From positions 3,989 through 67,988 of IMG/VR virus record IMGVR_UViG_3300043446_001534: a stretch of DNA of 64,000 nucleotides; one strand, given 5' to 3'. Origin of the DNA: a virus. Of the stretch, positions 2,124-63,999 are shown one piece after another; the first letter of the stretch is position 1; each line of letters starts with the position of its first letter. The notes beneath the pieces are model-generated. The model did no database searches and was not told the DNA's origin. It saw only the letters and a program-made list of their open reading frames with translations. The translations under genes were made by a program, and so were the position numbers.

Positions 2124-2140
2124 TATAAGGAGAAAAGGCT

Positions 2141-3307
2141 ATGCCTACTCAAGATTATGCAGCCAGCATCCAGGGTGTGTCGATTCGTGTCACCCGTCTG
2201 GACGCTGCTGGTAACCTACTAACTGGTCCTCTGGACAGCTACACAACATCAGCATTTATGCGTGTTTCGTTTACCCCTGAATATGAAGAGGGTGACGAAA
2301 TCACCGAAAAGGGTGCTAACGGTGTTATTTGTGTATCTTACAAGGCTCCAGACACTCTGAAGCGTATTACCATGGAGCTCGCTATTTGTGAGCCAGACCC
2401 AGAGCTTTCTGCTTTGATTTCTGGTGGTTTACTGCTTCGTAAGAACATTTCTAACGATGCAACTAACAACTTTAAATCAGTTGGTTGGGCTGCTCCAGGC
2501 GTTGGAGATGACCCAGCCGGTAACGGTGTAGCCATCGAAGCATGGTCGCACGCAGTTTCTGGTGGTAAGCGTGCTTCGGTATTGCCTTACTTCCACTGGG
2601 TATTCCCATATGTGAAGATGCGTCAATCAGGTGACCGTGTTATTGAAAACGGTATGCTCGCCAACACATTCGAAGGTTACGGCCTTGGAAACGTTGGTTT
2701 CGGTTCAGGTATCGACGGCCGCTGGGAGTTCCCGGTTGCTACTGACCGTCCGTACTCTTACGCACGTACATCATGGGCACCAACCGGACTATCTGGTTTC
2801 TACACCTGGTCTGACAACTCAACCAACCAGGTTGTATTCTCAGCTAGCGGTGCTGGTACTAAGAACAAGACCACAATCACCATTGCTAACGTTGCTGCAA
2901 GCAACACAGCTTCGACTAACAACATCACCATGGGCTTCTCTGCAGACCCTGCACTTGCTGTCGGTGACGTTATTCGTGTGGCTAACATTGGTGTCGAGTT
3001 CGACGGTGACGTAACTGTTATTTCGAGTGCTTCGAACACAATTACATACACCTCGCCTGTTGCTAACACCACATTCAATACATTGACAGCCAACACTGCT
3101 TTGGTCACTAACACCACTGCCCGTGTTCAGGTTATCAATGCTGTTACTGAGGTCCGCACTACACCGGTCGCTACAACTGAAACCGACTTCAACTCGTCTG
3201 TTTCAGACCAGAGCTTCAACGTTCCTGGAAGCAAGACCTACAATGCTGACAATGCAATTGACAACATTATTACTGCAAATGAGTCTGGCACCACAAGCGC
3301 TAACTAA
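2141..3307 (+). CDS. Major tail protein with S/T/N-rich C-terminal extension
   Basis: Motifs IRVTRLD, YEEGDEITEKGANG.IC and LAICEPDPEL as in actinophage major tail proteins; strong RBS AAGGAG. Confidence 0.8.
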   Translation: MPTQDYAASIQGVSIRVTRLDAAGNLLTGPLDSYTTSAFMRVSFTPEYEEGDEITEKGANGVICVSYKAPDTLKRITMELAICEPDPELSALISGGLLLRKNISNDATNNFKSVGWAAPGVGDDPAGNGVAIEAWSHAVSGGKRASVLPYFHWVFPYVKMRQSGDRVIENGMLANTFEGYGLGNVGFGSGIDGRWEFPVATDRPYSYARTSWAPTGLSGFYTWSDNSTNQVVFSASGAGTKNKTTITIANVAASNTASTNNITMGFSADPALAVGDVIRVANIGVEFDGDVTVISSASNTITYTSPVANTTFNTLTANTALVTNTTARVQVINAVTEVRTTPVATTETDFNSSVSDQSFNVPGSKTYNADNAIDNIITANESGTTSAN

Positions 3308-33615: not shown

Positions 33616-33884
33616 TAGTTGTTCTTTCTGTTACAACCGCATTCGGCACGACGGTGTCTATCCACTGCGCTATTAGAGAGGTCAAATCCTTCTTCTCTAA
33701 GTACCTTAGCTATTGTAGCGTTATTTAGTCTGTCAGGAGCACCTACTGGCGTGTCTAACATTTTTTGTAGAGTTTCTCGGTCTTTCTCCGAGAGAGCATC
33801 TCCATGAACGATAGAGCCAATCTTACAGAGCGTTACACGCTTTTCGGTTTTCTTGGCTTCAGCAAACTTGTCTGCAAGTGACAT
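33615..33884 (-). CDS. Small HTH/Zn-like hypothetical protein
   Basis: CKIG...HRRAECGC; shares an MSL.DKF N-terminus with the downstream gene. Confidence 0.6.
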   Translation of the reverse strand: MSLADKFAEAKKTEKRVTLCKIGSIVHGDALSEKDRETLQKMLDTPVGAPDRLNNATIAKVLREEGFDLSNSAVDRHRRAECGCNRKNN

Positions 33885-37125: not shown

Positions 37126-37252
37126 AAACACGAGTCTGTATTATTCAGATTTCAGAACCGTGCTATAGAATATAGATGTGCACTCTGGGGAGAGGCACAG
37201 GAGGGGGCTGGCGGTACCAACTGTCAGCCCCCAACAATTACTTAGGAGAACT

Positions 37253-38056
37253 ATGAAAATTTGCATCGCCACCCCGATGTATGGCGGAAACGCTAAAAGC
37301 ATGTATGTAGCTTCGCTCGTCGAACTACTAAATAAGTTGGTATTGAACGGTCATCAAGCGTTTCAGACTGTAATCACTAACGAAAGTCTAATCACTAGAG
37401 CAAGAAATTCTTTGGTGCACGAGTTTCTAAAAACTGATGCGGATGCTATCTTGTTCATAGACGCTGACCACGGGTTCTTTGCTGATGATATTTTAAGAAT
37501 GGTTGAATCTGGTAAAGACCTGATTGGTGGTATTTACCCAATGAAAGCTATTAACTGGAACAATGTCAGAAAAGCAGCACTTGCTGGTAAAGAGAATCTT
37601 TCAGAATATTCTGGATTTTTTGCGGTAAACTTTTTACCTGAGGCTCAAACTTTTCAGTACTATGAACCTTTTAAAGTTCGTGATATTGGTACCGGGATGA
37701 TGTTTATCACTAGAAAAGTTTTTGAAGAACTTAAGCCTCATTGCAACAAGTATAGAAATAACTCCATTAATAATGGAAGCATTGAAGATGCGGAAATCAC
37801 CGAGTACTTCACCACTATGATTGACCCTGATGACAAGGTCCTTCTATCAGAAGACTATGCTTTCTGCTACATGTGGAGAAAATTAGGAAATGATGTATAT
37901 GCTGCCCCGTGGGTAAGACTTACTCACGCTGGTGATTATAACTTTGCCGGAAACTTCTTAAATATGCTGGAAGCTAATGAAATGCCAGACATTCCTATCG
38001 ATGCTCCAGCAGATTCCGCACAGTCGTCGGATACCACTTCCGCTGATTCTGAGTAG
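37253..38056 (+). CDS. GT-A (GT2-like) glycosyltransferase
   Basis: IATPMYGG, ESLITRARN, FIDAD and LSEDYAFC motifs; RBS AGGAG before ATG 37253. Confidence 0.75.
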   Translation: MKICIATPMYGGNAKSMYVASLVELLNKLVLNGHQAFQTVITNESLITRARNSLVHEFLKTDADAILFIDADHGFFADDILRMVESGKDLIGGIYPMKAINWNNVRKAALAGKENLSEYSGFFAVNFLPEAQTFQYYEPFKVRDIGTGMMFITRKVFEELKPHCNKYRNNSINNGSIEDAEITEYFTTMIDPDDKVLLSEDYAFCYMWRKLGNDVYAAPWVRLTHAGDYNFAGNFLNMLEANEMPDIPIDAPADSAQSSDTTSADSE

Positions 38057-38654
38057 GTATTCCATCACGGTTTAGTCCGTCGGCAATAGTTTTATACGAA
38101 GCCCCTGAAGCTCTTTCAGAGATAACTCTCTGTTTAATTTCTTCGGGGGTTTTGTTACGTGGTCCCATGTCTACGCCCCAGACTACGCCTCTTGCTCTAC
38201 GGTCTTTATGAACATCACGCTGACGTTCAGCAATAATGCCACGTTCCATCTCGGCAAGAGCAGACATAATAGTCACTACAAATCTTCCCTGATACGAAGA
38301 TGTGTCTAGATTCAAATCAAGCATTACTAATCGCCAGTTATTTTTATTAGCTCTATCAACAATGCTTAAGAAGTCTTGGGTAGAGCGAGCAAGTCTATCT
38401 ATTCTTGTCACAAATAATGCTTGTGCGTTACCAGCATCTAGTCTTTTCAATGCTTCTGTTAGTGCCGGTCTACCAGAGATAGATTTTCCGGAGCGACCTT
38501 CTTCGCGTACTATTTCTATATTTGTAAACCCGGCCATTTCTGCCGCTTGTTGTAGCTGACGCTCTTGAACATCAAGAGATACACCATCGTTTACTTGTAG
38601 CTGCGTAGATACACGGGCATACAATAGTGCTAGTCCTGGATTATCTGTACTCAC
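37995..38654 (-). CDS. Serine recombinase (resolvase/invertase family)
   Basis: YARVST, SG..RP.L, DRLARS and E.ER..I.ER motifs; short C-terminal recombinase/HTH part. Confidence 0.88.
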   Translation of the reverse strand: MSTDNPGLALLYARVSTQLQVNDGVSLDVQERQLQQAAEMAGFTNIEIVREEGRSGKSISGRPALTEALKRLDAGNAQALFVTRIDRLARSTQDFLSIVDRANKNNWRLVMLDLNLDTSSYQGRFVVTIMSALAEMERGIIAERQRDVHKDRRARGVVWGVDMGPRNKTPEEIKQRVISERASGASYKTIADGLNRDGIPTQNQRKWYPTTVRNLLEHR

Positions 38655-38661
38655 CTATTAA

Positions 38662-39555
38662 TTATAGGTTGTTTAGAAGTGCCCCTACTCTAGACTGCAA
38701 TCCATCTACTGTGGTTGAGTTTTCAATAATTTCATCAAATGCATAGTTGTTTAGAGCATGCTCTGATGCATGGTCATTTGCTGGTCCCACTCCCAGCCTA
38801 TTTACCCGCCAAACTTTACCATTTAACTTCTTAATAGCGTCTGCCTCGTTCGGGAATCTGACATCCGAAAATACGGCTTTTGCTCCGTCTGGAATTTCTT
38901 TAATGGCTGCGTCTACCCAGAAATCCTGGCCAAACATTTCTCTACCGACTTCTGTTCCAAATCTTTGAAGTAACCCTCTAATATCAGGGCTTCGTTCTTT
39001 GATTCCGTCCCAGCCGTAGATGTCAATTCCAATTCTAAGGGCGGTGTTTTGAACATCGTTTACAGTAATTCTTGGATTCAGTCTGTACATTGCTTCTTTC
39101 ATCGGAGCGGCAAAAGACATCTTTATATACCCATGGTTTTCCACTAAGTAGTCAGCAATGGTGTCCTTACCTGACCTAGCCCAGCCGGCGAGTCCGATAC
39201 ATGTAATTCTGGGCTGTAGTTGTCCATCTTTAAGAATTAGTAAAGGAATACCTACTGCTTCTGCGACATGCACTTCAAGTGATGCTCCTTTAGATGATTG
39301 CCAGCCAGGAAGAACACAGACTGCATCAACACTCAGTACATGAGGTAGGTCTCGTTTCATGTAGTATGACCAAGAGTTGTTTGGACGTTCTGGACTACCG
39401 GCACTAATTAGTGCTTCTTCTAGAGTTCCCCCATCATTGTGCGCAGGATTAATAACTTCATGCCCTAATGCTTCAAGTTTAGCTTGAGCTTCAAAAAATG
39501 CTAGGAAGTTCCAGTCGGTTATACCGCTCATCGGGCCTGCAATGTATACCTTCAT
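38662..39555 (-). CDS. DUF4406 (nucleoside deoxyribosyltransferase-like) domain fused to a deoxynucleoside monophosphate kinase
   Basis: VYIAGPMSG..LPGWQSSKGA.LE, then GLAGWARSGKDT, R.LLQ..GTE and DVRFPNE. Confidence 0.8.
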   Translation of the reverse strand: MKVYIAGPMSGITDWNFLAFFEAQAKLEALGHEVINPAHNDGGTLEEALISAGSPERPNNSWSYYMKRDLPHVLSVDAVCVLPGWQSSKGASLEVHVAEAVGIPLLILKDGQLQPRITCIGLAGWARSGKDTIADYLVENHGYIKMSFAAPMKEAMYRLNPRITVNDVQNTALRIGIDIYGWDGIKERSPDIRGLLQRFGTEVGREMFGQDFWVDAAIKEIPDGAKAVFSDVRFPNEADAIKKLNGKVWRVNRLGVGPANDHASEHALNNYAFDEIIENSTTVDGLQSRVGALLNNL

Positions 39556-53393: not shown

Positions 53394-53675
53394 ATGAACA
53401 TCGCAAAAATGATTCTCAAGCGTACAATTGCTCTTGTAATCCTAAAGGTTAGTGCCGTTTTGGCCGCTGGTTCTATTGGTGGCGTTGAGCTATGGCAGTC
53501 AGCCCTAATCGCGGCTTTCGTTGGAATTATGGAAGTTGCAGAATCGCTGGCTCGTGCCTATGTTGTAGACGGAGTTCTAGACGAAGAAGAAATCAATGTT
53601 GCATTTGCTTCTTCGGCTGAAGCTGCCCTGGCTGACTCAAAGAAGAACAAGGCGTCTGACGACTCTGGTCTTTAA
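53394..53675 (+). CDS. Holin-like two-TM protein (paralogue of 62888-63196)
   Basis: Two TM helices, then VAESLARAYVVDGVL..EEINVAF. Confidence 0.5.
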   Translation: MNIAKMILKRTIALVILKVSAVLAAGSIGGVELWQSALIAAFVGIMEVAESLARAYVVDGVLDEEEINVAFASSAEAALADSKKNKASDDSGL

Positions 53676-53684
53676 TAACTAAAT

Positions 53685-53723
53685 AACAAATCCCTCCGAG
53701 TTTCGGGGGGATTTGTTGCTTTT
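53685..53723 (+). terminator. Intrinsic terminator
   Basis: AACAAATCCCTCCGA-GTT-TCGGGGGGATTTGTT followed by GCTTTT. Confidence 0.75.
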
Positions 53724-53749
53724 GAGGCAACTATCTGCTAATGTGTATG

Positions 53750-53862
53750 TGTCGCAACCGCGGCAAACATCTAAGTATAAACAACTTAACATCGTTCACA
53801 ATTGCTGCTTAGGTGTACGACCAAATTAGTTCCCCCGTCATGTTAGCGCCTGGCGGGGGAAC
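53750..53862 (+). ncRNA. Putative small RNA
   Basis: Extended -10 TGC-TAATGT upstream, an 11-bp stem with a large loop, and a terminal GC hairpin. Confidence 0.4.
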
Positions 53863-53878
53863 ATTAAAAGGATTAGTC

Positions 53879-54139
53879 ATGGATTTTGAAGAATGGCTTA
53901 AATATGGTTTTGACCAGGGATGGTGTGGTCCAGCAGTTTGTGAGACTCACGATGGGATTCCACTAACTGAAGCTGAAGCAGAGGAATTTGAAGAAAGTGA
54001 CCCCTGCATTCATATCATCAGGCTTTATGATGACGCTGACCACAAGAAAGCTGTAGAGGATGCTCACTCTGCTTCCGTATGGCGTGCTACTAATAGGGGT
54101 TATACTATTGATAGTACGTCTGAAGCAGAGGAGGCTTAA
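53879..54139 (+). CDS. Hypothetical protein
   Basis: RBS AAGGA; motifs W...G...GW...VC.THDG and DPCIH..RL. Confidence 0.65.
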   Translation: MDFEEWLKYGFDQGWCGPAVCETHDGIPLTEAEAEEFEESDPCIHIIRLYDDADHKKAVEDAHSASVWRATNRGYTIDSTSEAEEA

Positions 54140-54141
54140 AT

Positions 54142-54273
54142 ATGGCAAAAGGTAAAGGCGGCGGTGCAAAGCCAGCTAAGGGCAGCAACGACAGCCGTCC
54201 TAATGGCAAAGCCAACAAAAAGCGTCCTAAGGTATTTGACGCAGTCAAGCGTAAGCTTGTCACCAAAAACTAA
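54142..54273 (+). CDS. 43-aa highly basic peptide (not in the ORF track)
   Basis: RBS GGAGG; MAKGKGGGAKPAKGSNDSRPNGKANKKRPKVFDAVKRKLVTKN. Confidence 0.65.
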   Translation: MAKGKGGGAKPAKGSNDSRPNGKANKKRPKVFDAVKRKLVTKN

Positions 54274-54282
54274 ATAGTGTGA

Positions 54283-54600
54283 GGGGATGACTGGTTTCGA
54301 CAGTTGTCTTAATGTTAGTGAAGCAAGCCGAGACGGCCACGCACTCGTAAGTGTGGCAAAACAATAAATGCTGAATCACGTTCCGCATTCGCTCTAGCAG
54401 CCTGATAGTTGCATAGAGCCCCCAGAAAAGCAGTAGTTCTAGCTGGGCATCTGGGTCTTAAATAAATAGAACAAACCAAAAGGTTGCAGCAGGAGACCTC
54501 TAAATATCCCGCCTTCGCAGTACCGTGGCTGGTAGAGCCTAAGCTTGTAGAAGAATAACTGAACGTCAATTGGACCGGGGTTCGATTCCCCGCATCTCCA
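54283..54600 (+). ncRNA. ssrA: tmRNA, tag AESRSAFALAA (54370-54405)
   Basis: 5' GGGGATG...GGTTTCGAC; 3' T-arm GGTTCGATTCC; acceptor CATCTCC-A with G3-U70; resume context ATAAAT-GCT. Confidence 0.95.
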
Positions 54601-54601
54601 C

Positions 54602-54850
54602 TAAAGGTCGGCTACCCCGAGCTAGCTATAGGGATGCTCCAGGCTGGTGTATTCCAGTGGCCTTTAAGTTTGAGCGTGACTGCTCAAGCGTGGACTACCG
54701 ACGTTAAGAGGGTAGTGTAGGTGGTCGCCCTGAAGGAGCGAATCGGCATACCAAAGCCGTAAGTAGTCATAAAGGGCTCGCAATGGTGCTCGTTCCTCCG
54801 AGGTAGTTCGGCAGAGAGGCGGTGGTGGCAACCTAGTCAGTTGTGCATCA
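54602..54850 (+). ncRNA. Unidentified structured RNA(s) between the tmRNA and a tRNA
   Basis: No ORF; dense helices and pseudoknot potential (see findings). Confidence 0.5.
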
Positions 54851-54855
54851 CACTA

Positions 54856-54928
54856 GGCCCCTTAGCTCAGTTGGCAAGAGCGGTGCAATTAGGTCGCACA
54901 GGTCGCAGGTTCGATTCCTGCAGGGTCA
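54856..54928 (+). tRNA. Non-canonical tRNA with anticodon TAG (Leu by code) on a short-variable-loop body; possibly a pseudogene or decoy
   Basis: Canonical D and T arms; loop ATTAGGT; A31-C39 mismatch; acceptor 3' strand 1 nt short. Confidence 0.6.
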
Positions 54929-54931
54929 CAA

Positions 54932-55051
54932 AAGGCTCTTTACTGCTGAGTCCACAAGACCAACCAGCAGAGCGAAAGCTTGAGACGACCCGTAAGGGTG
55001 GGAACCTCTGGAACCAAGGTCCAAACTTGGGAAAGGTCAGTACTAGGTCTT
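54932..55051 (+). ncRNA. Unidentified multibranched RNA between two tRNAs
   Basis: Closing stems AAGGCT/GGTCTT and TACTG/CAGTA; two GNRA hairpins. Confidence 0.5.
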
Positions 55052-55055
55052 CCAA

Positions 55056-55127
55056 TGACCATTAGCTCAATGGCAGAGCAGAGAGCTGTTAACTCTAAGG
55101 TTCCTGGTTCGAGTCCAGGATGGTCAG
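55056..55127 (+). tRNA. tRNA-Asn(GTT)
   Basis: Full cloverleaf; loop CTGTTAA; G73. Confidence 0.92.
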
Positions 55128-55135
55128 CAAATAAA

Positions 55136-55164
55136 CTTGACATCTTGAAACATGTGTGCTAGCT
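55136..55164 (+). promoter_or_regulatory. Strong sigma70-type promoter
   Basis: TTGACA-N17 (ending TGC)-TAGCTT. Confidence 0.65.
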
Positions 55165-55199
55165 TTTCCTTACAGGTTAAAAACCTAGGAAGGAATGAC

Positions 55200-55427
55200 A
55201 TGGCGACACACGCTAAGGAGCTAAAAGAGCTCATAAAACAGGCCCAGAAGCAAGGTTGGATAATTACCCCAAATAACAAGAATCACTACAAGTGGACTTC
55301 CCCTAGCGGAGCATTTTTCTTCTCTGCAGGAACACCCTCTGACTGGAGGGCTCTGAAGTACATTGTGCAGTATCTTAGGAAGTATGGGTTTGAGGACCAG
55401 TCTAAGAAATCGAAGGGTAATAAATAA
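55200..55427 (+). CDS. HicA-like protein
   Basis: L......GW......NH.KW..P.G......TPSDWRA......LR..G; RBS AGGAAGGA. Confidence 0.6.
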   Translation: MATHAKELKELIKQAQKQGWIITPNNKNHYKWTSPSGAFFFSAGTPSDWRALKYIVQYLRKYGFEDQSKKSKGNK

Positions 55428-55612
55428 TGGGTATTGATGCATATGACTATGGAATGAAAGACGGTATAGCAATAGAGCGTCAGCGCATTCTAGACTGGAT
55501 AAACTCTAATCGAACTGCCATGGAGTTGGGAGAGGGTGTAGTAATCTACCGTGACCATTTTAGCTCCGATAGTCTAATCCAGTTCATCGAGAGTGGGGAG
55601 AAAGCAGAATGA
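55427..55612 (+). CDS. Hypothetical protein
   Basis: Coupled ORF (TAATG). Confidence 0.6.
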   Translation: MGIDAYDYGMKDGIAIERQRILDWINSNRTAMELGEGVVIYRDHFSSDSLIQFIESGEKAE

Positions 55613-55782
55613 CGCTTCCTACAAAAATTGCCTTGTGGCTATTCGCTATCGCCTTAATCTGGATTGGGGCCGCTAGTGGTCAGGTCGGAACTAAACCTGA
55701 ACCTACTCCAACCAACTGCTGGGACCAATACCAGACAGAATATGAAGCAATCTTGAACTGCGAAAAACACGATGACAACTGA
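55609..55782 (+). CDS. 57-aa secreted/membrane peptide (not in the ORF track)
   Basis: ATGA overlap; MTLPTKIALWLFAIALIWIG...NCWDQY..E.EAILNCEKH. Confidence 0.55.
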   Translation: MTLPTKIALWLFAIALIWIGAASGQVGTKPEPTPTNCWDQYQTEYEAILNCEKHDDN

Positions 55783-55927
55783 GGAAATAGTGCTAAGAGT
55801 TGGCTTGACTTATTTAGCAATCTTTGTTATAGTCAACCTAGGCGGATACATCTACCTGAAACTATTTGTAGCGAAGAAAGACAAACAACATGGACCTAAA
55901 CAACCAAGCACCCTATATCGAGATTGA
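55772..55927 (+). CDS. 51-aa single-TM peptide (not in the ORF track)
   Basis: MTTEEIVLRVGLTYLAIFVIVNLGGYIYLKLF... Confidence 0.45.
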   Translation: MTTEEIVLRVGLTYLAIFVIVNLGGYIYLKLFVAKKDKQHGPKQPSTLYRD

Positions 55928-56165
55928 TACCCCTGCATTCCGTGCAGTAGCTAAAAGCTTTCTAAGTCTCCCCTATCCTGTAGTCTTAGCTGCTATGACT
56001 TCAATGCAAAGTACTGATGCTGTTCAGCAGGTGTCTGGAGTTGTAAAGGCACTTGAGATTGCCCTAGAACCTAAAGACTTTGTTCGCTTACAAACCTTAA
56101 CCGTAGACCAGTTAATAGCAGTGATTCAGGACTGGGTAGAGCCAATTAGCGGTATTGGAGTCTAA
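55890..56165 (+). CDS. Hypothetical protein
   Basis: ORF in the operon. Confidence 0.55.
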   Translation: MDLNNQAPYIEIDTPAFRAVAKSFLSLPYPVVLAAMTSMQSTDAVQQVSGVVKALEIALEPKDFVRLQTLTVDQLIAVIQDWVEPISGIGV

Positions 56166-56235
56166 CGTTGTATAAACTTAGGTTTAAAGTTATACGGGAG
56201 ATTGTCCGTTCTGTTGTGTACGAAGTTGATACCTT

Positions 56236-56577
56236 ATGAAACCAGAGCAACGCCCATGGGGTTCCTACGAGATTATGTCAGACTTTAACCCGCCTTGCTG
56301 TGTGAAGATTATTACCATCAATCCGCACTCACGACTATCGCTACAAAGACACCGCTATCGCTCTGAGCGTTGGAGGGCTTTGGACAAGGGTCTTATCGCA
56401 GTGGTAGGTGGCGAAGAAATCAAGATGCGTCTAGACAAAGACGTTTTCGTCGACGCCCTTACTGAACACCGAATAGTCAATCCAACCGATGAACCGCTGA
56501 GAGTTCTAGAGTTGATGTTTGGTCTCTATGACGAGGATGACATTACCAGAATCGAGGATGATTATGAACGAGTCTAA
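56236..56577 (+). CDS. Mannose-6-phosphate isomerase type II C-terminal cupin
   Basis: RPWG.Y, RLSLQRH..RSE.W, HRI.N and EDDI.R.EDDY.R motifs. Confidence 0.8.
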   Translation: MKPEQRPWGSYEIMSDFNPPCCVKIITINPHSRLSLQRHRYRSERWRALDKGLIAVVGGEEIKMRLDKDVFVDALTEHRIVNPTDEPLRVLELMFGLYDEDDITRIEDDYERV

Positions 56578-56725
56578 CGAAGACTACAAGCGTATAGTTC
56601 GGGCTTTGCGTGAGGAAAGAATGCGACAACAGAAAAGGCTTTACCAGCAAGCTAAGAAAGCTAGAAAATCTAATATCGTCGACGCCAGTAAGGATAGACC
56701 AAAAGAAGGAGAAACCAATGGCTGA
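56564..56725 (+). CDS. Small basic protein
   Basis: GAGGA RBS; MNESNEDYKRIVRALREERMRQQ. Confidence 0.5.
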   Translation: MNESNEDYKRIVRALREERMRQQKRLYQQAKKARKSNIVDASKDRPKEGETNG

Positions 56726-56888
56726 TGGATGGACATGTACAATCTGTAACACCAGACTGAGTACCAATAGCAGTAGTGCCCATAGCGTGGCTTTTGACCT
56801 AGAGATTATCTCTCATGCTAGGGGTCACGAATGCACTTGTACTGGTGATGGTGAAAAGTGCGAGAGATGTAGGTTAATGATTCAATGA
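56718..56888 (+). CDS. Small Cys/His-rich protein
   Basis: RBS AAGGAG; CTIC..H..H.CTC..C..C. Confidence 0.55.
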   Translation: MADGWTCTICNTRLSTNSSSAHSVAFDLEIISHARGHECTCTGDGEKCERCRLMIQ

Positions 56889-57124
56889 GAGACTATGAAC
56901 TAGAATGTGTTCATGGAATTGGTCATTCAGCCGGATTGCATGGCTGTGATGGCTGCTGTCTGCCACTAACCAAGGCTGCCAGCGACACTGAAATCAGAAT
57001 GCAGGCTGCTATGGCCGCCGCAGTTATTGTTGGAGCAAAGGGGTTCCCTTTGAGTATGACTCCAGAGATAGCCGAGAAGTTTGTTAGATATATCAAGGAA
57101 GGTCCAGAATGCGAGAGTTTTTAA
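56885..57124 (+). CDS. Hypothetical protein with a C.HG.GH...HGCDGCC motif
   Basis: ATGA overlap; metal-binding-like N-terminus. Confidence 0.6.
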   Translation: MRDYELECVHGIGHSAGLHGCDGCCLPLTKAASDTEIRMQAAMAAAVIVGAKGFPLSMTPEIAEKFVRYIKEGPECESF

Positions 57125-57273
57125 ATCCAGACCCCGAGGGTAAAACCGTCGACGCCAGTATTGATGAAATCGACGAGCGACTAGAGTTGCTCGGGATTGA
57201 GTTAAACGTTATCCGTGAGCACGCCGACGCCCTTAAGGATAGATTAGACAAGCTACAGCAGGATTTGTTGTAG
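57109..57273 (+). CDS. 54-aa coiled-coil protein (not in the ORF track)
   Basis: RBS AAGGAAGG; MREFLNPDPEGKTVDASIDEIDERLE... Confidence 0.55.
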   Translation: MREFLNPDPEGKTVDASIDEIDERLELLGIELNVIREHADALKDRLDKLQQDLL

Positions 57274-57284
57274 ACTGTAAATCT

Positions 57285-57357
57285 GCCCCTATAGCTCATC
57301 TGGTAGAGCGACGCACTTGTAATGCGTAGGTGACGGGTTCAAGTCCTGTTGGGGGCT
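57285..57357 (+). tRNA. tRNA-Thr(TGT)
   Basis: Full cloverleaf GCCCCTA.../TGGGGGC; loop CTTGTAA. Confidence 0.92.
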
Positions 57358-57375
57358 CCCATACAAATAAGGAGA

Positions 57376-57597
57376 ATGATGGAAGACCTAACAACAATGG
57401 TGGGTAAGCGAGTAGAAATCTGGTGGAATGCATCAGTACACAAGAACGCTGAAAGCGAGGAACTACTGGTTCCTGTGTCCCATGGTTATGGTGTAGTTGA
57501 GGCTGAGAATGACTTTGGTATCTCTATCCACAACGAGAATGACCAGCACGTGTTCATTCCGTGGACCTCAATTGCGAGCTTGTCTGTAGACAGATAG
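57376..57597 (+). CDS. Small Sm/SH3-like hypothetical protein
   Basis: RBS AAGGAG; VFIPWTSI. Confidence 0.55.
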   Translation: MMEDLTTMVGKRVEIWWNASVHKNAESEELLVPVSHGYGVVEAENDFGISIHNENDQHVFIPWTSIASLSVDR

Positions 57598-57701
57598 TCA
57601 CAGAAAATGGTAAAATAGGTTTAGATACGCCAAACGGGTATCTATAAATCAGCTGGTCTTCGGACAGCGAAGACTAGCATAATCACGTCTAAGGAGTGAA
57701 T

Positions 57702-58202
57702 ATGAGTAAAAACCATGGCTGGGACTCTTTCCCGCCAGACAAGCACGACTACTGGAAAAAGCTACAAAAACCAGAGCAACCAAAGGTTCTAACAATTCAG
57801 GACCTATTCCCCCGCATTGAGCGTTGGGGTATTGGATGGAATCCAGTACTAGAAACGCTAAAGCAAATCTCCGAAATCAAGCCAAGCTACCCGCCTTATG
57901 ACATCATCCGCTCGGGTGATGACTATCAGATTGTCATCGCGGTAGCTGGTATCAAGAGGCATGAGCTTCAAATTACCCTTGATAATCGGAGCCTTATCGT
58001 CGCCGCAGGTACTGATACATCAGAAGACCCTGTAGGTGAGGTAATCCATCATGGAATCGCCCAGAGGGACTTTAAACTGACCTTCGCGCTCGCCGAGTAC
58101 GTTGAAGTTAAGTCAGCCAAGCTTGAGGATGGTCTCCTAACTATTAAGCTAAAGTTGGAGCTGCCAAAGCACCTGGAACCAAAATCCGTCAAAATCGACT
58201 AA
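57702..58202 (+). CDS. Small heat-shock protein Hsp20
   Basis: YPPYDI, IAVAG, H.GIA.RDF...F.LAE.VEV..A.LEDGLL.I.L motifs. Confidence 0.9.
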   Translation: MSKNHGWDSFPPDKHDYWKKLQKPEQPKVLTIQDLFPRIERWGIGWNPVLETLKQISEIKPSYPPYDIIRSGDDYQIVIAVAGIKRHELQITLDNRSLIVAAGTDTSEDPVGEVIHHGIAQRDFKLTFALAEYVEVKSAKLEDGLLTIKLKLELPKHLEPKSVKID

Positions 58203-58212
58203 GTTCCCTAAG

Positions 58213-58241
58213 GAAACCCCTCGCTAAGGCGGGGGGTTTTC
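58213..58241 (+). terminator. Intrinsic terminator
   Basis: AAACCCCTCGC-TAAG-GCGGGGGGTTTT. Confidence 0.75.
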
Positions 58242-58256
58242 TACTAGAATAGACAT

Positions 58257-58487
58257 ATGAACGAGTATGGCGTTATTCAGCTGGGAGGCTATCTGCTATC
58301 CCTACCTGGGGCGTTTCTGTATCTTTCTAGTATGTATTTAGCTATTCGTCTTGCTTGGTTAGTTTCTGGAGACGAGAATGTTAAGCACTTTAGATTAACT
58401 AAGTTCTCTGTCTTTGGAATGTTGTTCATCTCGTCAGTTGTGTTGCTTTGGATTCAGTTGGGAGTTTGGTTCTATGTCAAAGCGTGA
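58257..58487 (+). CDS. Two-TM membrane protein
   Basis: Hydrophobic; TAGAAT lies 5 nt upstream of the ATG (leaderless-like). Confidence 0.55.
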   Translation: MNEYGVIQLGGYLLSLPGAFLYLSSMYLAIRLAWLVSGDENVKHFRLTKFSVFGMLFISSVVLLWIQLGVWFYVKA

Positions 58488-58647
58488 TTTTTGGATTGCT
58501 GTTTTTATTTACTTCTTCTCTGCAAATATTGCATGGACGCTTGTAACTATCTCGCTGCCTTGGATAGTCTGGTTGATTGGTCAACCGTTTCTTGTCCTTC
58601 TTAGCATGATGATTGTAGCTATTACCGTAGGAGGTAGAAACAAATGA
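58474..58647 (+). CDS. Two-TM membrane protein
   Basis: MSKRDFWIAVFIYFF...; GGAG RBS. Confidence 0.55.
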   Translation: MSKRDFWIAVFIYFFSANIAWTLVTISLPWIVWLIGQPFLVLLSMMIVAITVGGRNK

Positions 58648-58991
58648 GAATACCTTCGATGCCAAATGAGATAAAGGTTGGCACTCAGATTTACCAAGTA
58701 ATCCTTCGTACTCCGAAGGAAGATGGAATGTTGAATGATGGTAACTTTGGCTATACTCTTGACTCTGGATTAGTCATTGTCATCGACGCCACTATTTCCC
58801 CTACTAAGCAAAGAGTGACCCTTCTACACGAACTAATGCATGCTATTCAAATGACGTTTGGTTCTCCAACTAAACCTAGCAAAGATGCTGACTTTGAAGA
58901 GTGGGAGCATTACTTCATTGGTACTTATGAAGAGTCAATGCTTATTGTTTTACAAGACAACCCCAGTCTTCTGAAGTATTTAAGCGCATGA
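58644..58991 (+). CDS. Zincin-like HExxH protein
   Basis: TLLHELMHAI...E; RBS GGAGG. Confidence 0.7.
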   Translation: MRIPSMPNEIKVGTQIYQVILRTPKEDGMLNDGNFGYTLDSGLVIVIDATISPTKQRVTLLHELMHAIQMTFGSPTKPSKDADFEEWEHYFIGTYEESMLIVLQDNPSLLKYLSA

Positions 58992-59698
58992 TTTTCCACG
59001 GCGATGCTGTGGAGTTTATGCGTCAACTGGAAGACAACTCTGTTCAGCTAATTTGGACTGACCCTCCGTTTGGAACCGATATGGTGCAACGGATTGAGTC
59101 ATCTGGTAAGAAGTACAGAGACCTTTCCGTCGACGCAGTTATTGAGTTAATGAAAGAAGTAGCAGATGAATCTCTTCGCGTTTTATCTCCTAGTGGCGTT
59201 CTTGCTGTTTGTCTCGACTATCGCTCGGTTCACCAGGTTTATTGTGCGATTCTCGAAGCGGGGTTTACGCCTCGTGGCGAAATTATTTGGACGTTCGGTT
59301 TAGGTCGCGGAGCAACTAAGTGGTGGGCTAATAAGCACAACACTATTCTGCTATTCAGTAAAAGTGAATCCCCTCTCTTCGACGCCAGTAAGGTTCCTAT
59401 GGTAGTTAGAAAGTGGCCGAAGAAAGGCTACGAAGGAGACAAGAAAGTTTCGTCTGTTTGGGACATCACGCTATCGAACACCCATCCAGAAAGAGTTGGG
59501 TATCCAAACCAGAAACCGCTGGAACTTATTGAACCGTTTATAGAGGTACACACGCTAGAAGGTGATTTAGTGGTAGACCCGTTTGGTGGTTCAGGCAGTA
59601 CTGCAGCCGCAGCTAAGAAACTTGGACGCAGGTATGCAACTGCTGATACAAACCCAGTGGCGATTGATACAATTAAGAAAAGACTTGCCGAGGACTAA
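58988..59698 (+). CDS. N4-C/N6-A DNA methyltransferase (beta class)
   Basis: TDPPF, YPNQKP and DPFGGSGST motifs. Confidence 0.88.
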   Translation: MIFHGDAVEFMRQLEDNSVQLIWTDPPFGTDMVQRIESSGKKYRDLSVDAVIELMKEVADESLRVLSPSGVLAVCLDYRSVHQVYCAILEAGFTPRGEIIWTFGLGRGATKWWANKHNTILLFSKSESPLFDASKVPMVVRKWPKKGYEGDKKVSSVWDITLSNTHPERVGYPNQKPLELIEPFIEVHTLEGDLVVDPFGGSGSTAAAAKKLGRRYATADTNPVAIDTIKKRLAED

Positions 59699-59699
59699 C

Positions 59700-59728
59700 T
59701 TGCCACAGGGCTGTTAGTGCAGTAAGCT
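59700..59728 (+). promoter_or_regulatory. Sigma70-type promoter
   Basis: TTGCCA-N17-TAAGCT. Confidence 0.5.
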
Positions 59729-59761
59729 GGTCTCAGTTCAATAGCAAGAAAGAAGGCTCCT

Positions 59762-60040
59762 ATGCGAGAAAGACATGTTCGTAAACTACAGAAAGAGCGT
59801 CACCTCGCTGAGATTGCCTTCACCCTGCTTCGTAACCCGACCTTCAAGAACTTAAGTCGCTCTGAGCGTTACAAGATGGCCAAGTTAATCTACAAAGCCG
59901 AGCTTTTGGAGATGGAACTAAAGAGCAAAGAAATTGGAAGAACGCTTGCTGCATTCCAGGACATCATCAATCAGGTGGAAAACCAGATGCTTGAAGGCCC
60001 TGATGATGAGGATGATGACCCTTTCTTTGGTAAAGCTTAG
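59762..60040 (+). CDS. Hypothetical protein with an acidic tail
   Basis: Own promoter and RBS; ends DDEDDDPFFGKA. Confidence 0.6.
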   Translation: MRERHVRKLQKERHLAEIAFTLLRNPTFKNLSRSERYKMAKLIYKAELLEMELKSKEIGRTLAAFQDIINQVENQMLEGPDDEDDDPFFGKA

Positions 60041-60083
60041 GCGTTTCTTTCAACAAACCCCTGCAAATCTGCTACACTGATAA

Positions 60084-60161
60084 GTGCAATGGTTGTTTGT
60101 TGACATTGTGTATTTCCTTTCTACTGGGGAAGCCCCTCGGAGTTTACTCCGGGGGGTTTTC
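60084..60161 (+). ncRNA. Putative anti-Shine-Dalgarno small RNA
   Basis: Extended -10 TGC-TACACT, a hairpin, unpaired TTTCCTTTCT and a terminator. Confidence 0.55.
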
Positions 60162-60169
60162 TTATAGAT

Positions 60170-60205
60170 GAAGAAAACCCCCGCCAGCGTGACGGGGGCT
60201 TCTTC
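60170..60205 (-). terminator. Terminator of the lysis operon
   Basis: Minus strand GCCCCCGTCA-CGC-TGGCGGGGGTTTTCTT. Confidence 0.7.
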
Positions 60206-60272: not shown

Positions 60273-61400
60273 TTACTTGGCTTTGTGAGCCAAAATCCAC
60301 TTCAATGGGTCAATCAACTGGTTATAAGCAACAAGATGTCCGTTAGGCTTCTTGCTCATTCCCATGTGAAGGTGGGCCCCGGTACTTGCGGAACCGCTAG
60401 GGCTGGTCTTCTTACTTCCACCAACCTTACCAATAATCTGACCTAGCTTAACCTTGTCGCCCTTCTTAACTGTAGCTGTGCTAGCAGTCTTAGGTGACTT
60501 TGCATCAGCAGGTGCGATGTGGCAGTACTGAGTGTAAACACCATCAAGAGGGTTCTTAATTTCTACAACCCAACCTAGAACGTCAGTCCAGAAGACATTG
60601 GTAACAATTCCATCACAGACAGATGGGATTGGTGACTTGTCAGCTGGTGACCAGTCCTGACCACGGTGTGGGTGTGAACGGTATGGAGCCATATTTCCGA
60701 ACTCATCATTGCGAAGCTTAGGGTTAAATGGTTCCTTATACACTGGCTTTGGCTTTTCGGCTTTAGGTGCTGCAGGGGCCGCGGGAGCTGTAGGAGCTAC
60801 AGGAGCGACTTCTGCTTTAGCAACAACTGGCTTAACATCGTGAGTTGCAACAGGTGCAGTTGGAGCATCTGCTGGAGTAGCTTCGTGTGCAGAAGCTGCA
60901 ACCTTCTCTGCAGCAATGATTGCTTTGATGAATGGTAGTGGGTCAACAAAACCCTTACCATCTGCAGACCATGTGTAAGTCTTACCAGCACAAATCTCGA
61001 AGTGTAGGTGCTTTCCAGTTACGTCACCAGTTGCACCCATCTTGCCTAGAACTGTTCCAGCAGTAATCTTTTGTCCAGTCTTAACTTGAAGTGAGCCTTC
61101 TACCATGTGTGCGTATAGCGATACATATGGCTTTCCGTTAATAGTGTGAAGTACTTGAACGTAGTGACCGAAACCGCCTAGCGAGCCATCGGCTTTCTTA
61201 GTCTTACTTGGACCAGCAAAGATAACCTTGCCATCGTAGAAAGACTCGATGTAGATTACGTTTGCTGAACCCCATAGGTCTACGCCGTTATGGTGCTTAC
61301 GCTTAGTAGGGTCAGTAGGGTGCTGACGCCAACCAAATGGCGAAGTCACCTTGTAGTCTTTGTTTAGTACCCCGTCAATTGGGTATTGGGTCTTTGCCAT
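60273..61400 (-). CDS. Endolysin with two M23 peptidase domains
   Basis: HNGVD/YAHM/HLH, then an AP-rich linker, then HRGQD/YCHI/HLH. Confidence 0.85.
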   Translation of the reverse strand: MAKTQYPIDGVLNKDYKVTSPFGWRQHPTDPTKRKHHNGVDLWGSANVIYIESFYDGKVIFAGPSKTKKADGSLGGFGHYVQVLHTINGKPYVSLYAHMVEGSLQVKTGQKITAGTVLGKMGATGDVTGKHLHFEICAGKTYTWSADGKGFVDPLPFIKAIIAAEKVAASAHEATPADAPTAPVATHDVKPVVAKAEVAPVAPTAPAAPAAPKAEKPKPVYKEPFNPKLRNDEFGNMAPYRSHPHRGQDWSPADKSPIPSVCDGIVTNVFWTDVLGWVVEIKNPLDGVYTQYCHIAPADAKSPKTASTATVKKGDKVKLGQIIGKVGGSKKTSPSGSASTGAHLHMGMSKKPNGHLVAYNQLIDPLKWILAHKAK

Positions 61401-61403
61401 TTA

Positions 61404-62480
61404 TTATTTCTCCTCGGTAATTGGTCCGCCAACAACCCACGCAGAGCAGGTTCTTGAGGCGGCACATTTAAAGTCGAATGCTTCGCAGTAGCCAAGTTCG
61501 GCTGTGTCGATAGCATCCCACGCGTTTTGCTGACTTGAATCTCCGGCAGCAATGCCACCTTCGATACAGTCCAACATCTTTGGGGTGCGAATAAACATTA
61601 CGCAGTTTCCGCACACACTCTTTTTTGCTTCCGCAATTGTTACTCCCCAACGGTCAGCCTTTTCTTTCCAGAACGGAGTATTAGGTTCCTTAGGGTTTAG
61701 TGGCCCATAGCCAGCGGTTTCGATTGCTTTCTCTCGATTAGCAAGGTTGACACCAATGTCTTGGGTTGCTGGTGGACATGAGTCGTCATCTAGAGCAGCT
61801 ACTAGAGACGCAAGTATTGGGCTCATGGTTGAAGCCTCTGAATGCTTAGGGTGCATCTTAGGAAGAAGGTCGTTATCAGAAACGTACTTAGGGTTGTTTG
61901 GTTTACCGGATTTAACTAGCTTCAAGAACGCATTAACGCGAGCCATGGCCCATGAGTTTCGGTTTTGGTCTGGGCGGTGGCTGGTAGAAAATGCACCTGC
62001 TCCACGACGATAAACAGCCTTTAGTTTAGCAAGAGTTACTTTACGTCCGTTTGGAGCCTTCTCGTTGTGCTCGGCAACTTTCTTTTCTAGGGCACTAATG
62101 ATAGAGGCTGTGAACTCTACGCCTTTGCCTGAAGCAGCGGAGCCCTTTGAGTTCTTACTAGAACCTTTAATTTGGTCTTTCTTTGGAGCTGGTTTAGAAC
62201 CTGCAGTAGCAGTTACAGCCCCGTCTGGAAGAACAGCGAAGCGACACAGCCCGCCTTCTTCAGTCTCGTGAGAGATAATCTCGCAACCGTTTGGCGCTTC
62301 CCAGAATACGCAGTTGCCACACTTAACGCCAATAGCAGCGTTCTCTGCGTTCTTTTCGGCAGAGTCGTAGCCAGCCCAGACGCCAGTATTGTCCTCGTTG
62401 AACTTACCATGCTTCTTGACTATAACGCGTAGAGCGTTGGCTAAATCGCGCTCTTCGGGTACAAGATTTTCTTCAGACAT
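61404..62480 (-). CDS. Multidomain protein with two Cys-cluster (HiPIP-like) modules
   Basis: CGNCVF..C..C occurs twice, flanking LKAVYRRGAGAF..SHRP...WAMARVNAF. Confidence 0.55.
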   Translation of the reverse strand: MSEENLVPEERDLANALRVIVKKHGKFNEDNTGVWAGYDSAEKNAENAAIGVKCGNCVFWEAPNGCEIISHETEEGGLCRFAVLPDGAVTATAGSKPAPKKDQIKGSSKNSKGSAASGKGVEFTASIISALEKKVAEHNEKAPNGRKVTLAKLKAVYRRGAGAFSTSHRPDQNRNSWAMARVNAFLKLVKSGKPNNPKYVSDNDLLPKMHPKHSEASTMSPILASLVAALDDDSCPPATQDIGVNLANREKAIETAGYGPLNPKEPNTPFWKEKADRWGVTIAEAKKSVCGNCVMFIRTPKMLDCIEGGIAAGDSSQQNAWDAIDTAELGYCEAFDFKCAASRTCSAWVVGGPITEEK

Positions 62481-63196: not shown

Positions 63197-63999
63197 TACT
63201 TCCTCCTAATTGTTCGAGATGATGAACCGCTTGAAGCAGTAGCGGTAGCTAGGGCTGCTGTCTGAGCAATCTGTCCGACAACAAGGGTGGTTACAACAAG
63301 AGTCTGTGCTTTCTTTCTCGCCTTAGGTGAGATGTCAGCTCCAACGTTGCCAATAATGTTTAAGGCTGCAACTACTGCTTCGGCTGCTTGCCCTATACCA
63401 GGAATCTCTGCAAGTGCTGGGTCAACTTGGATGTCGTCTTCTTGGGCTGCGAGGTAAAGTGCATCAAGAGCCTGTTGATATTCTGGTGAGCCTTCTGTGG
63501 CTGTTTCAAAGACAACGAGGGCTGCTTCTACAAGTTGCTGTGCTTGTTCTGAAGTAAGTTCGGTTGGGTCTACTGCTTTAAGGTCAACTTCCATCAAGTC
63601 TTCAATAACTGGTGGAATCTCTGCAGAACCTTCGGGTTCAGGGTCTGGTTCCTTAGTGAGAAGTTGCTCTACCTCTTGGAAAGAAATGTTGCTTACTTTC
63701 TGAACTGAGTTGTTAGTCTCTGTTAGTGAGACTTCGGCAGTTGCTACTTTTTCTTCAGAAACTGTCTTGTTGGTGGTTGCAGTTGTTAGTGCGAAGTCAG
63801 CAGCGTTGAGCGCGGCCGTTGCTGTTTGAAAGTTAGCTTCGGCAGTATCAGCTTCAACGGTTGCTTGCTGAAGTTCAGTAACCGCTTGGTCTTTGTTAGT
63901 TGTTGCTTGGATGAGTAATGCATCTGCATTACCTAAGGCTGTTTTCTTAGACGCAAGTACTGTTGATGCAGACTGCTCTTCGGAAGTTGCAGTTGAGAG
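63196..63999 (-). CDS. Large coiled-coil/membrane protein, C-terminal part (5' truncated by window edge)
   Basis: Frame open from 63999 (LSTATSEEQSASTVLASKK...); C-terminal N.GAD.SP..RKKAQ..VV...VVGQIA. Confidence 0.7.
   Translation of the reverse strand, partial: LSTATSEEQSASTVLASKKTALGNADALLIQATTNKDQAVTELQQATVEADTAEANFQTATAALNAADFALTTATTNKTVSEEKVATAEVSLTETNNSVQKVSNISFQEVEQLLTKEPDPEPEGSAEIPPVIEDLMEVDLKAVDPTELTSEQAQQLVEAALVVFETATEGSPEYQQALDALYLAAQEDDIQVDPALAEIPGIGQAAEAVVAALNIIGNVGADISPKARKKAQTLVVTTLVVGQIAQTAALATATASSGSSSRTIRRK

Follow-up and report, generated by a model that had tools for sequence, protein, structure and literature searches.

The window analyzed here is a stretch of 64,000 nucleotides (nt) that covers bases 3989–67988 of a 67,988-base virus contig in IMG/VR (record IMGVR_UViG_3300043446_001534, here called G000). 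Its subject is an array of a short word, CGTCGACGCMNNTA, which is written repeatedly on the + strand between positions 56448 and 59390, inside the genes of an accessory operon. The contig, which was classed as 46% complete by CheckV, belongs to a siphovirus-type phage, from a family of uncultured freshwater phages, encoding a tape measure protein, a major tail protein, PolA, a primase-helicase, a helicase and a class II ribonucleotide reductase, and it also encodes WhiB, a transfer-messenger RNA (tmRNA) and three tRNAs. The closest named relative is "Actinomycetia phage DSL-LC01" (PolA 77.5% identical), which is itself a metagenome assembly according to the cited part of its description (PMC10611076), and the next are Microbacterium phages. 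Given the WhiB gene and the actinophages as nearest relatives, the hosts are likely actinobacteria.

The operon is located downstream of the tmRNA and tRNAs, with a tRNA-Thr gene inside it at 57285–57359, and no homologs of its 17 proteins were found in bases 1–50,000 of DSL-LC01. The operon and the copies of the word are listed below. Coordinates are those of the window unless another genome or locus is named.

55152–60040, + strand: accessory operon carrying the array; 17 genes, from the HicA-like g91 to g92
56448–56461, + strand: strong copy CGTCGACGCCCTTA; cupin gene, peptide F-V-D-A-L
56677–56690, + strand: strong copy CGTCGACGCCAGTA; near the 3′ end of the gene of a 53-amino-acid (aa) basic protein, geneA (56564–56725)
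57013–57026, + strand: weak copy GGCCGCCGCAGTTA; 79-aa gene
57147–57160, + strand: strong copy CGTCGACGCCAGTA; 54-aa coiled-coil gene (57109–57273)
57222–57235, + strand: strong copy CGCCGACGCCCTTA; same 54-aa coiled-coil gene; lineage-specific
57998–58011, + strand: strong copy CGTCGCCGCAGGTA; Hsp20 gene (57696–58202)
58781–58794, + strand: strong copy CATCGACGCCACTA; M78/IrrE-type zincin gene (58644–58991)
59128–59141, + strand: strong copy CGTCGACGCAGTTA; N6/N4 methyltransferase (MTase) gene (58988–59698)
59377–59390, + strand: strong copy CTTCGACGCCAGTA; same MTase gene

An initial annotation, made from the letters of the window, had described eight copies of the word on the + strand within six different genes. 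This was borne out by a search allowing at most one mismatch, which returned 8 copies in the window, all on the + strand, in the genes of the cupin, the 53-aa basic protein, the 54-aa coiled-coil protein (two copies), Hsp20, the M78-type zincin and the N6/N4 MTase (two copies). In dinucleotide shuffles the mean was 0.19 copies, and none of 100 shuffles reached 8. The ninth, weaker copy at 57013 is also present, with a position matrix score of 16.9 versus 19–27 for the eight, and the distal TA is kept in every copy, as had been claimed. No further matches to CGTCGACGCMNNTA were found elsewhere in the whole contig on either strand, which agrees with the earlier remark that the cluster has no counterpart in the rest of the DNA. 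The heptamer CGACGCC occurs 6 times in the array region and not once on the + strand of the remaining 65 kb, and the CpG content of the region is not raised relative to the rest of G000.

The number of copies also exceeds what the encoded proteins would produce. When synonymous codons were permuted within genes, so that the proteins were preserved, 1000 runs gave a mean of 1.33 copies with a maximum of 4, and when codons were drawn from the codon usage of the genome, 1000 runs gave a mean of 0.24 copies with a maximum of 3, versus 8 observed. The word can be written as [C/T]GT[C/A]G[A/C]CGC[C/A]NNTA, mostly followed by (T/A)(T/G)G, which gives a length of 14–17 nt. Its flanks are poor in information (at most 0.5 bit per position), except for a G at +17. 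The distance between copies is 75–783 bp in G000. No copy scoring 9 or more was found between the tRNAs and position 56448, and a scan for promoter consensus sequences was negative at every copy in the window.

Recurrence and conservation of the word in related phages

The scan of IMG/VR with the exact word led to G001, a collinear contig of 125,776 bases (93% complete) with 75–85% nucleotide identity to G000; both contigs were classed as linear and lack end repeats. Among the 114 loci from this exact 14-mer search, 101 had a single copy (at most one mismatch), mostly by chance, and eight copies were present only in locus L114. A search with the g91 protein led to two more lineages, L173 (which is G002, with the near-copy L183) and L174, and a scan of metagenomes with the g91 profile returned at least one locus, again L183. 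The g92 profile led to 14 loci, 11 of them new, with g92 proteins 50–64% identical. BLAST of the array region against a phage database gave tRNA matches only, and the Hsp20 relatives found in IMG/VR (43–50% identical) lack the word.

G001 contains 9 copies of the word in forward orientation and none in reverse. Seven of the nine lie within 3.7 kb, out of 125.8 kb, at the syntenic place, with spacings of up to 1061 bp, and the remaining two are at 38418 and 81897; this supports the confinement of the array to one domain. The number of strong copies per genome is thus 8–9, over a span of 3–4 kb. Same-strand arrays of the word are present in at least six further phage lineages. The most broadly shared part is the core GACGCMNNTA, which was counted in 11 of the 14 g92 loci, three near-duplicates being excluded, and which occurred 52 times in forward and once in reverse orientation, although these loci have genes on both strands. 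The counts per locus include none in L232 and two in L231. Lineages differ at the 5′ end of the word, where they have their own "dialects", such as nGTAGACGCC..TATTG in L224 and L233. L173 and L174 have forward-only arrays in partly different genes (cupin, geneA, ThyX, cytidylyltransferase and MTase), while DSL-LC01 has no array, and g92 is also absent from its whole record. Altogether the word was found in genes of the cupin, geneA, the coiled-coil protein, Hsp20, a glycosyltransferase, the zincin, the MTase, ThyX, a cytidylyltransferase and a deoxynucleoside monophosphate (dNMP) kinase, as well as in a recombinase gene and, at G001 81897, in the gene of a small membrane protein.

The comparison of G000 with G001 showed that six sites are orthologous. 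The initial annotation had pointed to synonymous positions in related phages as the place where selection on DNA should be visible, and at these six sites they are frozen: 29 of 30 third codon positions are identical, compared with a background of 0.584 in the same genes (P = 2e-6). Among all specified positions of the word 70 of 72 are identical, compared with a background of 0.753 (P = 4e-7), and both changes are at positions where the copies themselves differ (A/C at position 6 and C/A at position 10). In the codon preceding the word the amino acid varies (I/T, T/N, L/F), while the third-base C is retained.

The individual sites give the same picture. The cupin genes of L173 (8955) and L174 (9753) have copies in the same protein segment, as judged by eye from the peptide contexts. 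The geneA copy at 56677 is orthologous to those at G001 31918, L173 9190 and L174 9082, and in this protein, which is 38–46% identical in the four lineages, the word-encoded V, A, S and K are invariant. The 14-mer at 57147 is identical at G001 32557, where the protein is merely 49% identical, and identity is also complete between 57998 and G001 33498 (Hsp20), between 59128 and G001 35370 and between 59377 and G001 35619 (both MTase). The zincin copy at 58781 differs from that at G001 35023 solely at the free position 12. In the L173 MTase a copy is located about 13 nt upstream of the counterpart of 59377, an offset obtained by manual alignment, and it is in another reading frame.

Other sites have turned over. 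G001 has not retained the weak copy at 57013. The place in G001 that is aligned to 57222 reads ACT GCT TCT CTG AGT and does not contain the word, which means that this copy was gained or lost, and the G001 copies at 33774, 34835 and 34856 (in the glycosyltransferase gene and mem2) likewise have no counterpart in the other genome. The dNMP kinase gene has the full word where it lies inside the array (L224) and is one synonymous base short of it where it lies outside (G000), a small natural experiment with a suggestive outcome.

The initial annotation had also noted that the copies share one codon phase. This is true of all eight and of the copy at 57013, in each of which base 1 of the word is a third codon base, giving the peptide x-V/I/F/A-D/A-A-x, but it does not amount to a signal of its own. 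Across the proteins of G001, synonymous recoding could create the word at 183, 33 and 5 places in the three frames, so that 183 of 221 (83%) share the phase that is observed, and the third frame mostly meets a stop at TA(A) or TGA, as read from the copy sequences. The shared phase is thus explained by the proteins tolerating the word best in the V-D-A frame. The 28 copies that were placed against open reading frames (ORFs) in four lineages comprise 26 inside genes and two in non-coding DNA (L174 8933 and L173 12723); of those inside genes 25 are in the V-D-A frame, many of them mutually orthologous, and the off-frame copy is L173 11988 in the MTase gene, read as S-T-P. What distinguishes the operon is how often the compatible places are used, namely 7 of 11 inside it versus 1 of 210 elsewhere in G001. 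The earlier remark on disfavored C-ending codons holds in part: GTC (0.15 of Val codons) and GCC (0.18 of Ala codons) are minor, but GAC, at 0.57 of Asp codons, is not disfavored.

These data bear on the simplest alternative, which is that there is no DNA signal, and that a VDAS-like peptide or a local codon habit produced the copies by chance. VDA-type peptides are indeed frequent in the proteins of the region. However, this explanation is refuted by the protein-preserving shuffles, which never reached 8, and by the frozen synonymous positions, and it does not account for the non-coding, antisense and off-frame copies, or for a region that is not CpG-rich. We consider its probability negligible. 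The data support the proposal of the initial annotation that a DNA-level array is superimposed on coding sequence, as synonymous sites are kept and the word recurs in non-homologous genes within one domain.

Strand of the word and direction of the host genes

To the right of the operon the genes of both G000 and G001 run on the minus strand, and this convergent block contains weaker matches to the word. The relevant features of the window are as follows.

59621–59637, + strand: weak copy CTTGGACGCAGGTATGC; 3′ end of the MTase gene; score 13.8
60152–60182, no strand assigned: perfect inverted repeat of 12 bp, resembling a terminator hairpin; separates the operon from the convergent minus-strand block
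61277–61293, + strand: weak copy, antisense in the minus-strand M23 peptidase gene; score 15.6
62375–62391, + strand: weak copy CCCAGACGCCAGTATTG, antisense in the minus-strand DUF5824 gene; score 14.7
63946–63962, + strand: weak copy CTTAGACGCAAGTACTG, near the contig end; score 18.3

The minus-strand block of G001 contains 7 forward and no reverse weak copies at a matrix score of at least 10, whereas shuffles of this block gave a mean of 0.47 and a maximum of 4, and none of 500 reached 7. A like trend was observed in the G000 block (3 copies, P ~0.002–0.01), and there was no excess of weak copies in other minus-strand blocks. In L224 the minus-strand DUF5824 gene is located inside the array itself, and it contains three plus-strand cores, compared with 0.23 expected from synonymous shuffles (P = 0.0002). 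The 17-mer at 62375 is identical at L224 3792 in the same gene family and has been lost in G001; the G001 place aligned to 61277 scores 10.2, and no BLAST partner in G001 was aligned for the copy at 63946. The presence of the + strand word in minus-strand genes, together with the two copies in non-coding DNA, indicates that the signal is at the level of DNA rather than of mRNA or peptide.

This observation bears on the possibility that the word acts in transcripts, where a protein or small RNA would bind it and control stability or translation. All strong copies, including the one at G001 81897, are in the sense strand of + strand genes, and the first gene of the operon, g91, has a predicted HicA-like or double-stranded RNA-binding domain (dsRBD)-like fold, which makes its product a possible RNA binder. 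On the other hand, plus-strand copies are enriched in minus-strand genes, the codon phase is explained without recourse to translation, and a wobble-tolerant search of the phage non-coding RNAs (53487–56448 and around 60070–60161) detected no stretch complementary to the word. An mRNA-level role is very improbable.

The gene g91 (55197–55427, + strand) begins about 600 nt after the tmRNA and encodes a solo HicA/dsRBD-like protein with an invariant His. Its Pfam match to HicA (E = 0.033) is below threshold. The AlphaFold2 (AF2) model has the order alpha-beta-beta-beta-alpha (predicted local distance difference test score, pLDDT, 70), and Foldseek returned nothing at E ≤ 0.001, with HicA chains leading the list at E = 0.18. 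The G000 and G001 proteins are 93% identical, the codons for the conserved residues are 90% identical versus about 60% in neighbor genes, and no HicB-like partner was recognized.

A second way in which copies could follow the operon is silencing of the kind performed by stoperators, in which a monomeric phage repressor bound to the asymmetric word would block RNA polymerase throughout the operon, so that accessory or early genes would be silenced at a defined time or during a carrier state. The cited parts of PMC9283540 describe, for Cluster A mycobacteriophages, over 20 asymmetric 13-mers that are oriented along transcription and depend on this orientation for their function, with L5 gp71 and the TipsytheTRex repressor as examples of such systems. 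The array resembles them in belonging to phages of (likely) actinobacteria, in the multiple asymmetric sites of about 13–14 bp, and in the strong copies, all of which are co-oriented with the operon. In addition, one copy in L174 (8933), the only one so placed, is inside a promoter-like stretch before geneA. In contrast, stoperators are located in promoters or short intergenic gaps genome-wide, they flip with transcription, and the phages are temperate (PMC9283540, same parts), whereas the copies described here lie inside genes of one domain that takes up 3–8% of the genome, and they remain unflipped in minus-strand genes. No operator is visible at the start of the operon, no match to a repressor family was obtained among the operon proteins, of which the small proteins geneA, g92 and a Cys-rich one (56 aa) had no assigned family, and neither a repressor nor an integrase was recognized, the only recombinase being a small serine one. 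Silencing of this kind is unlikely.

The L174 stretch at 8900–8960 deserves a description of its own. It lies between a tRNA-Ser gene and the start codon of geneA and has the form TTGACA-N17-TATGGT, and the word copy supplies its spacer together with the first part of the −10 box.

The composition of the strands was also compared with the word. In G001, G exceeds C on the + strand between roughly 12.5 and 78 kb, irrespective of gene direction, and the word is co-oriented with this skew.

Possible readers of the array

From these data, some protein probably reads the DNA of the accessory region in one direction. With reasonable, though limited, confidence we regard the copies as a DNA-level, strand-polar protein recognition array, in which the word itself is under purifying selection. 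The copies would be recognition sites for one sequence-specific protein of this phage family that binds asymmetrically, and selection would write the word into whichever genes happen to occupy one accessory or early domain. Strong copies would occupy about 4 kb of this domain, and a tail of weaker ones would extend into the minus-strand block, giving about 10 kb in total in G001. The word would keep to one DNA strand regardless of the direction of the host gene, and would settle in the V-D-A frame, where proteins tolerate it best. From the polarity bound to a strand, the length of 14–17 nt, the 5′ dialects and the kept positions we infer that a phage-encoded enzyme or binder may engage one strand. 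Site-specific nicking or strand-specific loading is the mechanism that we favor for this step, tentatively and by analogy, as a possible rather than a probable one.

The analogy is with the nick words of phages tf, T5 and the phiKMV-like phages. As given in the cited parts of PMC3517423, these words are asymmetric, 7–19 nt long, present in 4–14 sites per genome and tolerant of some substitutions; in phage tf all 14 nick sites are on one (top) strand across two convergent transcription units, and its relatives have similar site positions with a variant word. The array resembles these words in keeping to one strand irrespective of transcription units, and in the kept positions (six between G000 and G001, and the cupin and geneA sites in three to four lineages) combined with variant dialects. 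It differs in the word itself, and no nickase candidate was found; the likeness is at the level of sequence. The same parts of PMC3517423 leave the function of nick words undetermined even in tf, phiKMV and T5. The array could be a variant of the known polar phage words, with a word of its own.

Several points count against the array as a recognition system, or limit how far the data can be taken. The nick motifs described so far are distributed along the genome (4.5–80% in tf; PMC3517423, cited part), whereas 7 of 9 copies in G001 are within 3%. We did not identify a reader protein, and none of the genes of the operon proteins was recognized as that of a nuclease. The position matrix was derived from the copies that it scores, which makes the scores of the strong copies circular; only the enrichment of weak copies and the reverse-strand and shuffle controls are independent of this circularity. 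The weak copies of the minus-strand block are enriched, but their positions are not conserved between G000 and G001, and we do not count them as proven sites; they may be non-functional, and a read-through transcript could place them in RNA. Only contigs of public runs were used, none of the runs listed for the phage being an RNA run, and the array is known from assembled sequence; among 40 of the 219 listed differences in sequencing-run contigs none was in a word copy, an uninformative result, as about 0.9 was expected. Finally, the gene models came from a crude ORF picker that mis-called some genes, and the copy at G001 32557, for example, is absent from the count of compatible places (7 of 11 versus 1 of 210).

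Four operon proteins, g91, g61, geneA and g92, are common to the four best-sampled lineages. Two phage proteins, one of them from this set, were considered as readers.

59762–60040, + strand: g92, last gene of the operon; helical hairpin, acidic D-rich tail ending in PFF
37995–38654, − strand: small serine recombinase, 219 aa; Pfam Resolvase (4.6e-34) and half of a Recombinase domain

The gene g92 adjoins the array in all 14 loci found with its profile, its model is a helical hairpin, and comparison of the profile with solved structures gave coiled-coil noise only. The acidic run followed by P-F-F resembles the C-terminal tip of bacterial single-stranded DNA-binding protein (SSB), which recruits replication and repair proteins. 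These properties, part of them modeled, make g92 a candidate reader or partner, as a lead only. Against a role as reader, L231 and L232 have g92 and almost no word.

The recombinase is 74–87% identical across the word-bearing lineages. Its gene is located 18 kb from the array in G000, and at 16–20 kb in G000, G001 and G002 as a group, while in L223, L224, L225 and L230 it lies in the array locus, 3–7 kb upstream of g92. The 3′ end of the recombinase gene contains a word copy in L223 and L224, which we read as the left edge of the array. The recombinase is a candidate reader too, again no further than a lead. In the window its gene overlaps the end of a + strand ORF (37178–38056) and was missed by the ORF picker. 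In the relatives the recombinase gene and the gene of a DUF4406-dNMP kinase have moved into the array locus on the opposite strand, which indicates an inversion or translocation within the family.

If the recombinase bound the word as a half-site, the copies could serve in-frame cassette exchange, deletion or capture of accessory genes. The conservation of the enzyme, its presence in the array locus in four lineages, with the word in its own 3′ end in two of them, and the strong variation of gene content between copies are consistent with this. However, DSL-LC01 has the enzyme (66% identical) and no array, and in three genomes the gene is far from the array. Crossover sites of serine recombinases have two inverted half-sites around a central dinucleotide, whereas here only one arm is informative and no second, inverted half-site is present. 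All copies are direct repeats, so that recombination between them would delete genes, and the BLAST breakpoints between G000 and G001 (56236, 57280, 58260 and 58385) miss the copies. Recombinase sites are accordingly an improbable explanation. Equally little weight is given to the broader proposal that a conserved phage protein, the mini serine recombinase or g92, reads a one-armed polar site and nicks, primes or exchanges DNA within the accessory domain. If such a system with a conserved reader were true, the domain would act, in lytic actinophages, as a hotspot to which gene turnover or recombination-dependent replication is directed.

The reader could also belong to the host. The word or its core would then be a signal of the Chi type for a host RecBCD- or AdnAB-type enzyme, concentrated by the phage in the active orientation, where it would stop degradation and start recombination-dependent replication. 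In G001 the degenerate core GMCGCMNNTA occurs 20 times forward and 3 times reverse, compared with 4–9 per strand for control words. In the E. coli phage LLS, as given in the cited part of PMC12315714, 20 of 23 Chi sites are in the active orientation, and they cluster near one end. The array therefore shares with the Chi sites of lambdoid LLS and of Pseudomonas phage MD8 (same part of PMC12315714) a strand bias (20:3 in both G001 and LLS), a local concentration and the property of being written through coding sequence, and the genome-wide polarity with a local peak resembles LLS in particular. The core is kept across phages whose proteins are 50–64% identical, as would be expected if the reader were a conserved host protein; an exonuclease of a PHROG family is encoded by the phage, and in the relatives DSL-LC01 and Pumpernickel a RuvC-like resolvase is annotated beside the polymerase. 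In contrast, the Chi words named in the cited part of PMC12315714 are contiguous octamers defined by the host, whereas the word described here is longer, with at least 12 specified positions and an internal NN, and its 5′ dialects differ between phage lineages. The array is also not adjacent to the terminase. A host search with NrdJ gave actinobacterial genes at 63–66% identity and three metagenome-assembled genomes (MAGs), in which the word counts were below control, and it did not lead to a host. A Chi-like signal is rather unlikely.

The initial annotation had further linked the array to the MTase gene inside it, with GTCGAC in the core of the word as a possible target. This link is weakly supported, as the L174 and L224 loci have arrays and no MTase there, according to tblastn and ORF lists. 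GTCGAC is not enriched (13 in 64 kb), and the nGTAGACGCC dialect does not contain it.

The array forms a second layer of information over phage coding sequence, which in a dozen or more unrelated genes is strong enough to fix minor codons and, in places, the amino acids themselves, and which persists across phages whose proteins have drifted to 50–60% identity. The reader could prove to be a novel nickase with sequence specificity, or a DNA binder that acts as a monomer on a 14–17-bp site, and it could explain how large lytic actinophages mark or handle a domain of accessory genes. The array is suited for testing because seven lineages show turnover of sites. In the paper library that was searched no description of the word was found, and the word query returned unrelated primer strings only.

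Other candidates and further features of the phage family

The initial annotation had named a parS, origin or packaging landmark among the candidates. A parS site is not supported, as the word is asymmetric and the neighboring protein with a DGHHR stretch has no ParB match in Pfam. At most the inner 8 bp of the word are palindromic, and the common variants CGTCGCCG and CGTAGACG break this symmetry. The neighboring protein matches DUF5824 only. It is 456 aa long in G001 (37708–39078, − strand) and 358 aa in G000 (61404–62480, − strand), and the G001 protein has by eye a DGHHR stretch of the ParB/Srx type, which Pfam does not recognize. Iterons of a replication origin, where repeats only tens of bp apart adjoin an AT-rich unwinding element, do not fit either, given spacings of 75–1061 bp over 3–4 kb and the absence of a GC skew switch at the array in the G000 window and in G001. 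An origin or packaging landmark as such is a possibility.

The injection-stop region of phage T5 was also compared. The array resembles it as a set of conserved cis-acting site clusters in a large, tRNA-carrying siphovirus, while the T5 sites, in the cited part of the source (bioRxiv 10.1101/866236), are DnaA boxes and repeats, and are untranslated. A better counterpart of the T5 region than the array is a 3.5-kb non-coding field in G001. This field, at G001 76,500–80,200 (L138 16500–20000 and L139 1–200) and hence outside the window, is T-rich and comprises many repeat families, with a GC content of 0.40 and an AT skew of −0.29. It contains at least five TTGACT...TAGAAT promoter-like units that share the spacer word CTGCGGTAA, and it may be an early promoter cluster or a terminal region. 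The isolated copy at G001 81897 is 1.7 kb to the right of the field, in the gene of a small, holin-like membrane protein that neighbors an NlpC/P60 gene.

In L223 a 698-aa frame (1013–3100, + strand) directly follows the recombinase gene and contains three copies of the word with similar flanks, tgaaa-CGTCGACGCC-nCTAAG; these may stem from a repeated peptide in addition to the DNA word.

The tmRNA (54283–54601, + strand) encodes the tag AESRSAFALAA in G000 and L173, AESRSTFALAA in L174 and ANTSAYALAA in G001. The tetranucleotide GATC does not occur at all in the 64-kb window, in the 125.8-kb G001 or in L173, L174, L183, L223 and L225–L230, whereas L224 and L231–L233 have 27–81 occurrences in 16 kb. 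This distribution suggests that part of the family very strongly avoids a GATC-specific restriction system.

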